Assembly (NCBI GenBank): GCA_038320275.1
Contig: JBBQEB010000014.1
Location: forward strand, 1 to 37,451
DNA length: 37,451 nucleotides
Source: Myxococcales bacterium
GTDB lineage: Bacteria > Myxococcota > Myxococcia > Myxococcales > Anaeromyxobacteraceae
Reading direction: 5' to 3'
Below are positions 9,187-37,451 of this stretch, one piece after another (the first letter of the stretch is position 1; every line of letters begins with the position of its first letter). The notes under the pieces are model-generated. The model ran no database searches, was not told the origin of the DNA, and was given only the letters and a program-made list of their open reading frames with translations. The translations under genes and the position numbers were made by a program.

Positions 9187-9262
<76 letters not shown>

Positions 9263-31244: not shown

Positions 31245-33557
31245 CTACAGATATACGCTCCGCCTCGCGGCGACGTCCTCGTCGAGCATGCGCTGGAGCG
31301 TTGCGCGGGTGGTCTCGGTGATGGCGAGGGCGCGCGCCGGGTCGTCCACCGTCCCTGGCTGCTCCGACCCGAGGTCGATGGGCGGCCCGAAGCGCAGCGA
31401 CCAGCGGGAGGGGAGGGGCACCAGACCGAGCCCTCCGAGGGGCAGCGACGGGGCTGCGGCCGGGAGCGGCACGCCGAGCTGAGCAGAGAGCCAACCTGGC
31501 CGGGACGGGGGCGCGGCGGCCTCCTCACTTCCCACGATGGCGCAGGGCACGATGGGCGCGCCCGCGCGGAGCGCAATCTTGGCGAAGCCACCACGTCCGA
31601 ACTGCAGGATGCGATAGCGGTCGGTCCAGGCCTTGGTGGTGGCCTGGGAGCCCTCCGGGAAGATGCCCAGCGCGACTCCCGCCCCGAGGAGCTCGAGGGC
31701 ATGGGTGGGCGTGGACGCGACCGCTCCCAGGCGCGAGGCGAGCGCCCCGACGATGGGCATGGCCAGGGCCTTCTCGTCGAGCAGGGGCCGGAGGACCCGG
31801 CGGCGAGGGTGAGCTCGGGCCAGCGCCTGAGCGAGGAGGAGCGCGTCCCAGGGTCCGACTCCGCCGTGGTTGGCGATCACGAGCACCGGCCCATCGTCCG
31901 GGACGTTCTCGATCCCGCGCACCTCGACGCGCCAGAACGTCTCGTACAGGAAGTCGAGGAGCGGGCGGAGCCGCTCTGCAAGCTCGGGGTCCTGGCCATG
32001 AGCGTCGGCCGAGTTGGACCGCGCGAAGAGCTGTCCCAGGGAGAGGAGCGACGAGAGCCGCTCGCGCAGGGCCGGCGCGAGGCGAACCATCACCTCGGCG
32101 AGCTCGGCGGCCGGATCCGACGGAAGCTCGCGGCGGGCCGCGGAGGCCAGCTCTCCGACGCGCGCGGCCGCATCGGCCGCCATCCGCCCGGCCTGCTGCA
32201 GCCCAGCCTCTACCCGCGCCTCGGCGTGCCCGAGCCGCTCCAGCAGCGAGCTGACCACGTCTTCCCGAGCCTCAGGCCGGTCCGGCTCCACGGCGCCCGA
32301 GGCCGGTCCCTCCGCCACGGCAGGCTTCGGCTCCCGATCGAGCGTCGCGGGTGGTTCGGCAACAGACGCCTCTGCCGTGGTCACCGGCTCGACGCGGCCC
32401 TGCAGTTCCTCGTCCAGCATGCGCGCCGGGAGCTCCGACTCAGCCCTGGGCGCGGCCTTGCGGCGCTTCCGAGACGCCTGCGGCGCGAGCTCCGCCGCGT
32501 CCGAGCCGGCGGCCACGGTGGCGGTGCGCTCCGCGTCGCCGGAGCTTCCGAGCGCCTGGAGCGGCGGCTCCGCCCGGTCCGGCTCGGCTGCGGCGGCGGG
32601 CGGCGGGCGGACCTCATCCGCGCTGGCCTCCAGAACGGGACCCGCCTCCGCCTCGTCCGGATTGGCGGCGACGGCGGGGGCCGGCTCCGGCACTTTCGGG
32701 GCGGTCACGAGGGTGAGGGCCGGCTCGGTCGGGACCCTCTCCGCGATGTCCTCCTCCGAGGCGCGCGGAACTTCCAGGCGAGGCTCTTGTGCGCTCACGA
32801 GCTCCAGCTCGGCTCCGCCACCCGCAAGCTCCGCATCGACCACAGCCTCCAGCCTGTCATCGGCGGTCGAGCGCTCAGCTTCGGCGCCCGGGAGCTCCGT
32901 CTCGGCGGCCATCCCCACGACCGGCAGCTCCGCCTCGAGCTCGTCCACGACATCTGGAACGACCTCGCCGTCATCGTCCTCCTCGCGGTCGTCCAGCTCG
33001 GACTCGGCGCCCGAAACCTCCTCCTCCTCGTCGTCATCCAGCTCGGACTCGGCGCCCGAGAGCTCCTCGTCGTCCCCGGCCGTGGAGGCCCCGGCGGACT
33101 TCCTGCGCGAGCTCTCCTCGGGCTCCCCCGCCAAGAGGGGAAGCTCGCGCTCGTCGCTCCGCGGCTGGGACACCGGGGTGACCGCCGCGGCCGGCCGGCG
33201 CTGGCGCGTGGAGGGCCGTTCGGCAGGCGCCTTGCGACCCTCGTCGCGGCCGGCTCGGCTGCTCGCGCTCGACGGCTTTCGATCCGCTGGAAGAGGGCTC
33301 CCCTTCCGCGCGCGTTGGCTCTCCACCTCGTGGGCGCTCGGCTTCGCGGCGCGAGGAGTCTCCTTCGCCGCGCGAGGGCTCTTCTCCGGAGCGCGCGAGC
33401 TGGCCTTGGCGGCGCGCGGTCTCGCCTCCGGGACGCGCGGGCTGAGCTGGGCAGCGCGAGCGCCCGCCTTCGGTTCGTGGGCGCTTGGGCGCGGCTTCTT
33501 CGCGTGCGCTGCGGGGCGTGCGCGGGACGTCTTCTTGGCCGGGGGGCGAGGGGGCAT
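31245..33557 (-). CDS. PlsC-like acyltransferase with a ~500-aa low-complexity N-terminal extension, 770 aa
   Basis: C-terminal NHGGVGPWD, GIFPEG, FGRGGF, APIVPCAIVGSEE; start ATG 33557 (the longer ORF overlaps mutL). Confidence 0.85.
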   Translation of the reverse strand: MPPRPPAKKTSRARPAAHAKKPRPSAHEPKAGARAAQLSPRVPEARPRAAKASSRAPEKSPRAAKETPRAAKPSAHEVESQRARKGSPLPADRKPSSASSRAGRDEGRKAPAERPSTRQRRPAAAVTPVSQPRSDERELPLLAGEPEESSRRKSAGASTAGDDEELSGAESELDDDEEEEVSGAESELDDREEDDDGEVVPDVVDELEAELPVVGMAAETELPGAEAERSTADDRLEAVVDAELAGGGAELELVSAQEPRLEVPRASEEDIAERVPTEPALTLVTAPKVPEPAPAVAANPDEAEAGPVLEASADEVRPPPAAAAEPDRAEPPLQALGSSGDAERTATVAAGSDAAELAPQASRKRRKAAPRAESELPARMLDEELQGRVEPVTTAEASVAEPPATLDREPKPAVAEGPASGAVEPDRPEAREDVVSSLLERLGHAEARVEAGLQQAGRMAADAAARVGELASAARRELPSDPAAELAEVMVRLAPALRERLSSLLSLGQLFARSNSADAHGQDPELAERLRPLLDFLYETFWRVEVRGIENVPDDGPVLVIANHGGVGPWDALLLAQALARAHPRRRVLRPLLDEKALAMPIVGALASRLGAVASTPTHALELLGAGVALGIFPEGSQATTKAWTDRYRILQFGRGGFAKIALRAGAPIVPCAIVGSEEAAAPPSRPGWLSAQLGVPLPAAAPSLPLGGLGLVPLPSRWSLRFGPPIDLGSEQPGTVDDPARALAITETTRATLQRMLDEDVAARRSVYL
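32992..33059. repeat. 23-bp direct repeat with 45-bp period (SGAESELDD twice)
   Basis: TCCAGCTCGGACTCGGCGCCCGA at 32992 and 33037. Confidence 0.85.
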
Positions 33558-33563
33558 GGCGGG

Positions 33564-33605
33564 CCTATAGCGATGCCGGAGCAATGCGTCAAACCATGGT
33601 AGACG
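33564..33605. promoter_or_regulatory. Divergent sigma70-type promoters for the acyltransferase and mutL
   Basis: Minus: TTGACG-17-TATAGG-6-ATG; plus: TG-G-TAGACG-6-GTG. Confidence 0.6.
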
Positions 33606-33611
33606 TGGCGC

Positions 33612-35402
33612 GTGGGGCGTATCCAGGTCCTCCCTCCCGGGCTCGTGAACCAGATCGCCGCGGGCGAGGTGGTCGAGCGGCCTGCGTCGGTGGTGAAGGA
33701 GCTCGTCGAGAACGCGCTGGACGCCGGCGCGACCCACGTCCTCGTCGAGGTCGAGGAGGGCGGCCTCACGCTCGTCCGCGTGACCGACGACGGCTCCGGC
33801 ATGAGCCCTGATGACGCGGTGGCCGCGCTCGAGCGCCACGCCACCTCCAAGCTGACGGACGTGGAGGGACTCCACGCCATCCGGACGCTCGGCTTCCGCG
33901 GCGAGGCCATCCCTGCCATCGCGTCGGTGGCGCGGCTGCGCCTCGACAGCTGGGACGGCGCGGAGGGAACCCCTGGCGTGCGGCTGCTGATCGAGGGCGG
34001 CAGGCTCGCCGAGCGAGGCGCCATCGCCCGCCCTCGCGGCACCACGGTGGAGGTTCGCGACCTCTTCTTCAACACGCCTGCCCGCCGCAAGTTCATGCGG
34101 GCTGCCTCCTCCGAAGCGGGCCACGTCAGCGAGGCGGTGATCCGGCTGGCCCTGCCACAGCCTGCGGTGGGCTTCACGCTTCGCTCCGCCGGGCGCCTCG
34201 CGTTCGTCTCCCCGCCGGACGCGCCGGCGCGCGACCGGATGGCGCTCGCCATCGGCAGCGAGGCAGCTGGCCACCTGATCGCCATCTCCGGGGGGCGCGG
34301 CGAGGTCACCGTGCGGGGGCTCCTCACCGCCCCTGCGCACTCGGCGGCCACCGGCCGGGGGCTCTACCTGCATGTCAACGGTCGATACGTGCGCGACCGG
34401 GCTGCCGCGCACGCCGTGCTGCGCGCCTACGCCGGGACGCTGCCCCCCGGCCGCTTTCCGGCAGGCGCCCTCTTCGTGGAGCTGCCACTGTCCAGGGTGG
34501 ACGTGAACGTCCATCCCCAGAAGCTGGAGGTTCGCTTCGCGGATCCGCGGGGGGTGCAGGACGCCATCTTCCACGCCGTCTCGGACGCGCTGCGGGCGAC
34601 TCCGTGGCTGCATCACGACGCGCGTGCGGAGCGCCCGGACGACGGCTGCGCGCCGCGCTCACCGCTCGCCGGCGAGGAAGGGGCGATGGCGCTGGCGGAA
34701 GCACGCGCGCTTCACCCGCAGGAGGCGCGGCACCCCGGGGACGGCCCCGCGCTTCCGCTCGAGCTCGCGGCCCGGAACCTCGCCCCTCCCCAGGCGCCTG
34801 CCAGCCCCGCGCGCGGGTATTTCGGCGCCCTTCGGTACATCGGCCAGCACGCCCGCACGTACCTCCTGTGCGAGGCGCCCGGGGGGACGCTGGTCGTCAT
34901 CGACCAGCACGCCAGCCACGAGCGCGTCCTCTTCGAGGGGCTCCGGCAGGCGTGGCGGGAGCACGCTCTTCCCGTCCAGCCGCTCCTCGTCCCCCTCGTG
35001 GTGACCCTTCCGCCGGCGCCGGCCCGCGCGCTGGAGAGCGCGCTCGGGGAGCTGCGCGCGGCGGGGCTCGACCTCGAGCCCTTCGGCGGCGATGCCTTCG
35101 CGGTCAAGGGGGCGCCCGCGGCGCTGGGGGGCATCGATCTCGCCGCCCTCCTGAAGGACCTGGCGCAGGAGGTGGAGCTGCTCGAACGCGGCGGCGCGAT
35201 GGAGGCCGCGGTCGAGCACCTTCTCGCGACCATGGCCTGTCACGCGGCGGTGCGCGCTCACCAGGACCTGGGCCCGGAGGAGGCGAGGGCGCTCCTCGAC
35301 AGGCTCGACGGCGTCCCTTCCCGGGGCCGATGTCCCCACGGCAGGCCGGTCGTGTTCGAGCTGCCGCTGATCGACATCGAGCGGAGCGTCGGGCGGCGCT
35401 GA
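33612..35402 (+). CDS. mutL: DNA mismatch repair endonuclease MutL
   Basis: [41 protein letters not shown], endonuclease motifs [21 protein letters not shown], clamp motif QPLL. Confidence 0.98.
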
Positions 35403-35420
35403 TCGGATGTCCACGATGTC

Positions 35421-35464
35421 CCGGACCGGGCCGGGCCGGGCGAGACGCGACGCGACGCGATGCA
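35421..35464. repeat. Adjacent pentamer microsatellites (CCGGG)n and (GACGC)n
   Basis: ccgga ccggg ccggg ccggg cga gacgc gacgc gacgc gatgc. Confidence 0.75.
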
Positions 35465-35645
35465 GTTCGCCCGCGCCAGCCTCGGCGGGACTTCCTGAAC
35501 CCTGCGGGGGGCAACGGTCGACTGGTGGGCCCCGGCCGTGAACCGGCGGCTCGCGCGAGATGCCGACCGAGGGGAGGGCCAACCAGTACAGGAGCGCGGG
35601 GCTCGAGCGGTGCGGGGAGTCCGCCCGAAACCACCGCGCTCCGAG
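35460..35645 (-). ncRNA. Candidate sigma54-dependent structured small RNA (3' end uncertain)
   Basis: Starts about 12 nt below a -24/-12 promoter; two long nested stems; G-U pairs form only on the minus strand; C-rich loops; no protein-like ORF. Confidence 0.6.
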
Positions 35646-35655
35646 TCAAATCACG

Positions 35656-35671
35656 AGCAGTCTGCGTGCCA
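35656..35671 (-). promoter_or_regulatory. sigma54 -24/-12 promoter
   Basis: TGGCACGCAGACTGCT; GG and GC at canonical spacing. Confidence 0.8.
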
Positions 35672-35907
35672 TACTGAACAGAAAGGCGAAAACACCCTGT
35701 TTGCGTGGCCTTGCCGAGCGCGATGCCCCTTGCACGTTTCGCTGCGGCATTTCACGACTGAACGAAGCCATTTCAAAAATGGAAGGAGAGGAGCTGAAAA
35801 AAGAATCACCCGTGGGACGATAAATTCTTCCATCTGGGTGGTGCGGCGCTGTGTCGCGCGAGTCTCCGTGCAAGAGAGAGTAGGTGCTCTTCCGGCTTCT
35901 TCAGTCT

Positions 35908-35923
35908 TGGCATTGATGGTGCA
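35908..35923 (+). promoter_or_regulatory. sigma54 -24/-12 promoter
   Basis: TGGCATTGATGGTGCA; GG and GC at canonical spacing. Confidence 0.7.
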
Positions 35924-35935
35924 ACTAGTATCCTC

Positions 35936-36085
35936 GTGCAGGGAACGATCACAGGCCGCGACGTCCTTCGCCACTCGCTGACGATCCTCAGACTGTGGGG
36001 CCCGTCGTGCTACGTGCGCTGCCTTCACGCCGTGGTGACCCGGCGGCCCTGTACCTTCCTGGAAGTGATCTCGGCCCGGCCGTAG
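35936..36085 (+). CDS. Small protein, 49 aa, not in the ORF track: MQGTITGRDVLRHSLTILRLWGPSCYVRCLHAVVTRRPCTFLEVISARP
   Basis: GTG at the expected TSS of the sigma54 promoter; mostly G/C third positions; amphipathic pattern; hairpin TGGAACG/CGTTCCA (36090-36110) right after TAG. Confidence 0.7.
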   Translation: MQGTITGRDVLRHSLTILRLWGPSCYVRCLHAVVTRRPCTFLEVISARP

Positions 36086-36128
36086 CGCCTGGAACGGCGC
36101 GCTCGTTCCACGCGCGGCCTCTTCAGCG

Positions 36129-36692
36129 ATGGACGCCGGAGAAGCCCGCGTGCCAGAGTCGCCAGCCGTGAAAGCGCGCGATCCACGTCTGCGCCCCTAC
36201 CGCGCGGCGCTGTGGGCGGTCTACTTCGTCATCGTGGTGGGCGGGGTGGGTCTCGTCACAATCAGCGTCGCCCGTAACCTCCGGGTCACCAACAGGCCAG
36301 TCCGCGCTGACCCGTGTTTTCTTCCCACCAAGGCAGCCCTGCGCCTGTGCCTCGGCGACCTCGAGGGTTTGTACCGGGAGGGGAACGAGCGCGCCTGGGC
36401 GCTGGGCACGGGGATGGAAACGGCCGATCCCCTGGGAAGCTGGCAGACCTGGGCGCGCGCATGGGAGGCCCGGGTGGAGGATCTCGGCGAGCGCTGCCGG
36501 CTCGATGGCCCGGCCACGGGACCGGAGGCGGTCGCCCGGTCGGAGCTCGCTGCCGGCCGCGACGCGCTCCTCGCGCTCCACCGGGCCTACGCGACCCAGG
36601 TGGCCCGGTTCGCCCAGGAGCACGGCGACCTTGCGCGAGGGGCAGCCGAGGCGCTCGCGCACGCCCGCGAGGCGGTGGGCCGGGCGCAGTAG
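36129..36692 (+). CDS. Hypothetical single-TM membrane-anchored helical protein
   Basis: One hydrophobic segment (ALWAVYFVIVVGGVGLVTISV) followed by a helical domain with Cys residues. Confidence 0.75.
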   Translation: MDAGEARVPESPAVKARDPRLRPYRAALWAVYFVIVVGGVGLVTISVARNLRVTNRPVRADPCFLPTKAALRLCLGDLEGLYREGNERAWALGTGMETADPLGSWQTWARAWEARVEDLGERCRLDGPATGPEAVARSELAAGRDALLALHRAYATQVARFAQEHGDLARGAAEALAHAREAVGRAQ

Positions 36693-36732
36693 CACCGGAG
36701 TTTTCGGCGCCTCTCGAGGGGCCAAGTTCCCG

Positions 36733-37323
36733 TCAGTCGGCGCAGCGCTGGCTCGCCGGATCGTACTGGAACACCCAGCGGTAGACCTGCACCTCGAATC
36801 CTAGCTCCGCGCTCCGATTCGGGAGGGCAGCGTTGGGGCTTCCCAGCGGCATGAAGCCGTTGGAGACCACCAGCTCCACCACGTGGACGGGGGCGGCGGG
36901 GTCGTAGGCCGGCGGGGCGAAGACGAAGGGCTGCACCGGCCGGCGCGTGGCCGGCGCCGTCACCGGAGGAGGGCTGTCGAGGGCCTGCGCCCCCGTGGAG
37001 GATGGTGCGAGGGGGTCGTAGTCGACGAACCAGCGCGCATCGACGGCCTCGGTGGTGTTCGGGTCGTCCACCTCGGCGCGCAGCTCGAAGCGTGGGCCCG
37101 GAAGAGGGCACGCGACCGAGACGCGGACCACACTGTCGATCGGCGTGAGCGAGGAGGGGTCCACCACGATGCGCGGCGGCGTCACGGTGCCCCCGTCCAC
37201 CCGCCCCAGCTCGGGCAAGGGCTGCGGGAGAGGGCAGCCCCCGAGCCCGGCCGCCGCGAGGGAGCCCGCCAGCGCCGCCAGGGTGAGCCGCGCCAGGCAG
37301 GAGGTACGCGCCCGGCCGCTCAT
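36733..37323 (-). CDS. Hypothetical lipoprotein
   Basis: Lipobox LGGC; PPRIV, RWFVDY, VVELVVSNGF, YRWVF; ATG overlaps upstream TGA (ATGA). Confidence 0.8.
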   Translation of the reverse strand: MSGRARTSCLARLTLAALAGSLAAAGLGGCPLPQPLPELGRVDGGTVTPPRIVVDPSSLTPIDSVVRVSVACPLPGPRFELRAEVDDPNTTEAVDARWFVDYDPLAPSSTGAQALDSPPPVTAPATRRPVQPFVFAPPAYDPAAPVHVVELVVSNGFMPLGSPNAALPNRSAELGFEVQVYRWVFQYDPASQRCAD

Positions 37324-37451
37324 GCCCGCTCCTCGCCGCTGCCGGCCTCGGGCGGAGGAAGTCCGCGCCGTTCCGCCTCCAGCTTCTCCAGGTGCCGGAA
37401 CACGGTGCGGGGGTCCACGCCGAGGTCCTTCGCGGTCTTGGTGCGGTTGCC
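37320..37451 (-). CDS. C-terminal Fis-type HTH of a probable sigma54 enhancer-binding protein (5'-truncated by the window)
   Basis: GNRTKTAKDLGVDPRTVFRHLEK...ERA-stop; matches the GNxxxAAxxLGxxRxTLYR pattern of HTH_8. Confidence 0.8.
   Translation of the reverse strand, partial: GNRTKTAKDLGVDPRTVFRHLEKLEAERRGLPPPEAGSGEERA

Follow-up and report, generated by a model that had tools for sequence, protein, structure and literature searches.

Small RNAs (sRNAs) transcribed from sigma54 promoters under an enhancer-binding protein (EBP) include Qrr in Vibrio, where several paralogues respond to one activator, CrcZ and NrsZ in Pseudomonas, and GlmY/GlmZ; in these systems a two-component signal is passed via the EBP to the sRNA. 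Pxr is the best-known myxobacterial sRNA; it occurs in processed L and S forms and gates multicellular development in Myxococcus, with its targets and mode of action described as open in the available part of PMC11928866. Accessible sections of other papers place pxr in the interval between the PxrR gene (nla19) and an NADH dehydrogenase gene (PMC5568312), report that PxrR is essential for Pxr synthesis (PMC10217877), assume an enhancer-binding region upstream of pxr (PMC5684412) and describe Pxr paralogues with their own promoters in Cystobacter (PMC5568312). Here we analyse the gap behind mutL in a window of DNA (the whole stretch of 37,451 nucleotides, contig JBBQEB010000014.1) from a member of the Anaeromyxobacteraceae with a 4.1-Mb genome of ~72% GC. 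This gap probably holds a relocated one-hairpin Pxr paralogue, likely driven by PxrR, back to back with a small-protein gene whose mRNA is predicted to be leaderless.

The locus shares with the M. xanthus Pxr system (PxrK/PxrR, also Nla19 and SpdS/SpdR; RF01812) a sigma54 box directly upstream of the RNA, a palindrome repeated in tandem upstream at matching distances, and an unpaired C-rich apical loop (a run of 6–9 C in the family) on a long stem like that of stem-loop 1 (SL1). Canonical Pxr has three stem-loops with a conserved SL3 stem; the RNA here differs in being a single hairpin of ~63–65 nt starting 13–17 nt past the box, without SL2 and SL3, an optional second hairpin being unlike SL3 by eye. 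Furthermore, this copy is found behind mutL and well away from pxrKR, whereas sister copies occupy the pxrR–nuoN interval, it is paired with a divergent small-protein gene, and its C-run is shortened. Unlike Qrr, CrcZ/NrsZ and GlmY/GlmZ, the RNA has no Rfam match at any level, and its activator site and structure are different. The original prediction, made from the sequence of the window, did not recognise a described system here; Pxr/PxrR is described, but no description was found of this copy, of its one-hairpin form or of the protein.

The hairpin RNA behind mutL

The gap extends for 726 bp from the stop codon of mutL (33612..35402, plus strand; Pfam MutL_C and DNA_mis_repair), an anchor gene outside the module, to the next long open reading frame (ORF) at 36129, and its GC content is 0.56–0.58 at 35600–36000 against 0.717 genome-wide. 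A lower-GC gap of 0.7 kb with two back-to-back −24/−12 boxes about 235 bp apart had been predicted and was found, and both boxes are conserved in relatives. The box of the RNA (GG-N10-GC, 35656..35671, minus strand) has a predicted start near 35645, and that of the small-protein gene (GG-N10-GC, 35908..35923, plus strand) a predicted start at or 1–2 nt before the GTG codon. Their first bases are 237 bp apart, and they form the sole back-to-back pair closer than 500 bp among the 38 TGGCA-N7-TGC(A/T) sites of the genome. The RNA-side box is present at 23/30 mutL loci (the −12 element is non-canonical in 2 of these 23), and the plus-strand box at 13/13 mutL-linked copies of the protein gene. L079 (G033) and L215 (G173) keep the mutL-linked RNA and an intact palindrome, with TTGA for TTGC at −12.

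The minus strand of 35645–35403 folds better than its shuffles (z −3.04, 0/200), which the plus strand does not (z −0.99). The structured non-coding segment claimed past the minus box thus has a fold behind it, but the conserved RNA spans only 35642–35591 and not the whole segment. Nine syntenic relatives show the minus-strand box followed by a near-invariant hairpin of ~63–65 nt whose loop is rich in C and which in most cases carries a U-run. A covariance model built from 10 mutL-linked relatives with this genome left out (R1) gave a single match here, at 35584–35642 (E 1.5e-4 within the window). R1 matched 38/61 genomes at 43 places, and all 32 of these places that were inspected, including 18 behind mutL, have a GG-N9-TGC box 13–17 nt upstream. 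On the model match, the fold and compensatory swaps, we assign 35591..35642 (minus strand, 52 nt) to a diverged allele of a Pxr-family single-hairpin RNA, with a C-rich loop at 35620–35610 and without a U-tail. This hairpin is more stable than all 300 shuffles (z −5.0) with the loop unpaired, and three A-U pairs of its closing stem are swapped to G-C. In an alignment of 35 sequences, the 11-pair closing stem has 32 cells, spread over 5 of its pairs, in which both sides have changed, compared with 0/500 shuffles and ≤5 in slid controls, relatedness inflating the shuffle test. Only the C-run and the closing stem are invariant across the hairpin family.

A hairpin just behind mutL that, together with a U-run, has the shape of a terminator could be a mere mutL terminator or DNA element. 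We consider this very improbable, given that the U-run is on the strand opposite mutL, the distance to the element's own sigma54 box is fixed in 32/32 matches, the same element occurs behind pxrR, and the loop is conserved. A second, optional hairpin is predicted behind the RNA (35521..35587, minus strand), which may belong to a longer transcript or serve as the mutL terminator; a similar hairpin with a conserved stem follows many, though not all, RNA orthologues. It was also seen behind the RNA at L043, L046, L047, L049, L050, L053, L059 and L164.

By sequence comparison, the minus-strand hairpin is a Pxr-family paralogue relocated behind mutL, because sister copies occupy the canonical pxr position and resemble stem-loop 1. 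Fourteen other R1 matches with long flanks comprise 8 directly behind a PxrR orthologue, 3 in other contexts and 3 false ones; pxrK is upstream in each of the 8 PxrR-linked copies, with nuoN downstream in 6/8. R2, a model wider than R1, scored stem-loop 1 of canonical Pxr at 24.1 bits (E 0.001) and 20.8 bits, and at 13.6 bits in a third, while L137 was scored by both Rfam Pxr (50.9 bits) and R2 (35.6 bits). Synteny, these R2 scores, L137 and the palindrome described below all support the comparison with Pxr drawn in the original prediction.

R2 finds the RNA in 32/41 genomes of the family. In a census anchored on mutL, which was matched in 30 of 36 family genomes, the loci were picked by mutL alone, and palindrome, box and C-hairpin were either all present (23/30) or all absent (7/30); the protein gene was detected at 13/30 loci, 12 of these 13 with the RNA. 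Among nine genomes with the mutL copy whose pxrR locus was examined, the RNA follows pxrR in 3 and is missing there in 6, with nuoN within ~200 bp of pxrR in 5 of the latter. G016, G024 and G196 carry both mutL-linked and pxrR-linked copies, and in several relatives the mutL-linked RNA is the sole Pxr-type RNA found. This distribution suggests, as its simplest reading and with a high degree of confidence, that pxr and its enhancer were duplicated into the mutL gap in an ancestor of the family, and that one or other copy would then have been lost.

Three tandem RNA copies with their own promoters were observed in G057 (L061), and two in G038. One-hairpin Pxr orthologues missed by RF01812 occur at the canonical locus in Anaeromyxobacteraceae and other families (L105, L106, L111, L113–L116, L129, L161). 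A receiver-like small ORF lies 3' of the canonical-position RNA on the same strand at L159, L158, L162, L105 and L114, and canonical-position copies without a U-run may read through into it. C-loop hairpins with U-tails, having no sigma54 box at the family distance, were seen in the more distant families f12 and f20 at L136, L138, L140 and L141 and left unassigned, three of which adjoin another NtrC-type gene (42–45% to PxrR). Several candidates were discarded: the weak R1 matches L102, L103 and L110 and the R2 matches L139, L144 and L146 as false, being without a sigma54 box, the alphaproteobacterial pattern match L035 as chance, and an identity as 6S, RNase P or SRP RNA, which gave no match at all. 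The available text of PMC10217877 reports that pxrK and pxrR mutations bypass the requirement for lon (bsgA) in M. xanthus; a lon protease gene lies ~7 kb from a mutL-linked RNA (L119:11189-13723).

The tandem palindrome and its predicted activator

Two copies of the palindrome TT(T/G)CA-N4-TG(A/C)AA (35750–35763 and 35771–35784; together 35750..35784) lie between the promoters and, by motif and spacing as at pxr, constitute a predicted PxrR enhancer. Their centres are 107 and 86 bp upstream of the RNA box, compared with 104/86 and 104/85 bp in two canonical pxr loci and 103–108/82–88 bp in 18/18 mutL copies. With ≤2 mismatches allowed, this genome has the palindrome at a single site, where each of the two copies deviates from the motif at one position, and the exact palindrome was found once per genome in 5/5 genomes, each time at a Pxr-type promoter. 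Across the order it is present in 62/121 genomes, where a control pattern gave 0. Eight loci were picked by the palindrome alone, of which 7 have the box and 5 an R2 match, with 2 more cut by contig ends. As PxrR is needed for Pxr and the motif stands upstream of pxr, the palindrome is likely the PxrR site; no mapped PxrR site was found in the literature surveyed. A PxrR orthologue (72–76%) was detected in 9/9 relatives tested, and the predicted site singles out one or two promoters in each genome as the regulon. We have good confidence that PxrR, activated by PxrK, would drive the RNA: phosphorylated by way of PxrK, it would bind the palindrome and activate sigma54 polymerase at the RNA promoter.

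The original prediction had instead linked both promoters to the adjacent EBP, an FHA-like/GAF/AAA+/Fis protein whose gene reaches into the window with its 3' end (37320..37451, minus strand; HTH_8). Synteny of this gene with the gap is conserved, a point in favour of its activating both promoters. However, the enhancer motif is that of canonical pxr, pointing to a PxrR encoded elsewhere, and it is found at pxr loci far from the FHA-GAF gene. Moreover, this gene persists in G025, which has neither RNA nor palindrome, and in family f6, whose gap gave no R2 match, and its C-terminal helix-turn-helix is unlike that of PxrR. This neighbour is therefore probably not the driver, because the palindrome is the predicted PxrR enhancer, and we regard its control of both promoters as highly unlikely.

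The 49-residue protein and its promoter

The 49-codon ORF predicted to face the plus-strand box was found at 35936..36085 (plus strand) and is a protein gene under purifying selection. Its reading frame is kept, differences at codon positions 1/2/3 number 425/261/1065, and pN/pS is 0.27, as counted across 11 syntenic copies (55 pairs). When 61 genomes were searched at the DNA level, 16 gave matches, of which all strong ones span 35930–36086; the conserved plus-strand block was also considered as an RNA and rejected on its fold (z 0.59 against shuffles) and its coding-type substitution pattern. Homologues numbered 125 with a single query and 1165 with a profile, and the family is present in 96/201 genomes of the phylum, including 61/63 of family f6 (a count that takes in G262, an unpublished genome). 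Where annotated at all, homologues are labelled “hypothetical protein”. Searches gave no Pfam or NCBIfam family, no match to a PDB fold and no usable Atlas match, a literature search on the protein found nothing, and the AlphaFold model, with four short helices, is of low confidence (pLDDT 60).

The GTG codon lies 13–14 nt past a sigma54 box in 14/37 distinct copies, namely 13/13 mutL-linked ones and one paralogue, and an SD-like word precedes 2 of these 14 compared with 19 of the other 23. Since sigma54 transcription starts ~12 nt past the GC element, such copies would have a leaderless mRNA. Two f6 genomes have the gene directly 3' of mutL with an ATG codon and a purine-rich leader, read as a ribosome-binding site, and without a sigma54 box; at this place the gene therefore predates its sigma54 promoter. 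Elsewhere, 11/51 sigma54-like boxes of G000, the genome of the window, have an ATG or GTG 12–15 nt behind them (contigs C9, C43, C93, C180 and others; a raw count without a chance control), and leaderless sigma54 mRNAs may be common there. Paralogues at L011, L019 and L024 lie under sigma54 boxes with another upstream motif (TGTAA ~88–90 bp before the box, then TTGA-N5-ATCA), two of them preceded by a second small ORF.

A palindromic sigma54 enhancer works in both directions, and it is an even call whether the palindrome also activates the protein promoter, whose box is 152 and 131 bp away from its two copies (131–221 bp among mutL-linked copies). In G000, G017, G179 and G197 the palindrome is the sole recognisable site, TGTAA being absent at its usual distance while the box is kept. 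In the other direction, and counting against a shared enhancer, TGTAA/CGTAA stands 108–112 bp before the protein box in 10/13 mutL-linked copies, and a TTCGACA-like motif ~79 bp before it in most copies. The gap may thus contain two modules, PxrR serving the RNA while the small-protein promoter answers to a different activator, possibly the FHA-GAF protein, at an upstream site of its own. The varying distance from palindrome to protein box fits this reading, as does G025, which lost RNA and palindrome yet keeps the protein, its box and TGTAA. The 306 bp flanking the predicted leaderless paralogue L025 contain no palindrome, 11/23 RNA loci are without the protein gene, and the f6 protein behind mutL has a ribosome-binding site and no sigma54 box. 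Against it stand the four genomes with the palindrome alone, and we put two modules at somewhat less than an even chance. The predicted unit of one enhancer for an sRNA and a small protein is favoured by those four loci and put in question by the separate TGTAA motif and by G025; the protein is a possible second output of the same activation. G017 and G033 were dropped as RNA-less proof of a shared enhancer because both carry diverged RNA copies.

State of the allele, mode of action and significance

Several observations weigh against the explanation by a relocated, PxrR-driven Pxr paralogue. Genome-wide, the R1 match here is weak (E 0.016), and Rfam Pxr (RF01812, gathering threshold 80 bits) found no match, even at E 5–10, in the window or at 11 orthologous loci, and none in 36 genomes of the Anaeromyxobacteraceae set. 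The duplication reading is drawn from presence/absence and synteny rather than from a tree, among kin that are not independent. The motif is missing at L041, a third, diverged canonical pxr locus, the palindrome site L230 has no RNA, and in other families the motif accompanies three RNA copies that have no pxrR within ~6 kb. This assembly itself contains no pxrR (best match 46–51%); contig C146 breaks off within the first part of selB, which precedes pxrK in relatives, hence pxrR likely falls in an assembly gap at pxrKR rather than being lost. RNA data came from three metatranscriptome contig sets via the G017 locus L080, and these contigs show neither starts nor strand; transcript, start sites and PxrR binding are predictions from the DNA.

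The allele itself is also unusual, with 4 consecutive loop C compared with 6–9 in the other 22 mutL-linked copies, and no U-tail, a T4 run being present in 12/23 copies. According to the accessible portion of PMC5684412, Pxr of M. xanthus loses its function when one loop C is changed to A, hence this allele may be weakened, retargeted or decaying. Decay of the RNA, with the enhancer kept for the protein gene or decaying too, is suggested by the interrupted C-run, the absent U-tail and one mismatch per palindrome, and by that M. xanthus result. We nonetheless find it rather unlikely, as three compensatory pair swaps and a z of −5.0 speak for a maintained hairpin, the promoter is near consensus, and 11/23 copies are without the T4 run, several with the second hairpin behind. 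That the altered allele still works is, in our estimate, slightly favoured.

The RNA would be ~55–70 nt long and act through its unpaired C-rich loop, and of the ways in which the loop could do so, pairing with G-rich mRNA seems to us the best supported, if only moderately so. No conserved target emerged, which is a further point against: among 6027 start candidates of this genome, scanned crudely, none stood out, no two of the 30 inspected among 67 G-run-before-ATG sites from three relatives were homologous, and at 21/21 loci the cold-shock mRNA was free of G5 runs between −60 and +20. Binding of a protein by the loop (sequestration) would fit this outcome, the invariance of only C-run and closing stem across the family, and the reports, in the parts available, that Pxr targets are unknown (PMC11928866) and that M. 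xanthus is without Hfq (PMC11928866; PMC5684412). We nevertheless judge sequestration to be unlikely; the target searches were crude and partial, and no binding protein was identified.

The natural one-hairpin variants suggest that stem-loop 1 is the working core of Pxr. Anaeromyxobacteraceae are not known to form fruiting bodies, and their Pxr copies allow an ancestral function to be studied apart from development. The literature surveyed on Pxr and Anaeromyxobacter, including the available part of a review (PMC8538405), mentions no Anaeromyxobacter Pxr, the original pxr papers and supplements lying outside that survey. New here are the mutL-linked one-hairpin variant and a conserved microprotein family without a name that the locus exposes, the Pxr/PxrR system being known already. 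Tentatively, Pxr could be an ancient one-hairpin C-loop RNA across Myxococcales. In this family it would have been duplicated into the mutL gap together with its PxrR enhancer, have often taken the place of the original, and have brought a near-universal myxobacterial microprotein under the same enhancer as a second, leaderless output, giving PxrK/PxrR a paired RNA-plus-peptide module that predates fruiting-body control.

Downstream, the small-protein gene is followed by a syntenic 187-aa hypothetical protein (36129..36692, plus strand), possibly co-transcribed with it, and a syntenic 196-aa lipoprotein-like ORF (36733..37323, minus strand; lipobox by eye, no Pfam match). The end of the EBP gene at 37320 overlaps the start of the latter, agreeing with the predicted Fis-type gene coupled to a lipoprotein gene, and a full-length FHA-like/GAF/AAA+/Fis orthologue in G004 is in an operon with an upstream Ser/Thr kinase gene. 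Rfam gave 0 matches in the gap at both gathering and E-value level, and its sole match in the window is a tRNA gene (9190–9262, minus strand). An acyltransferase (31245–33566, minus strand) has a long low-complexity acidic/Pro-Ala N-terminal extension, far longer than in the relatives seen.

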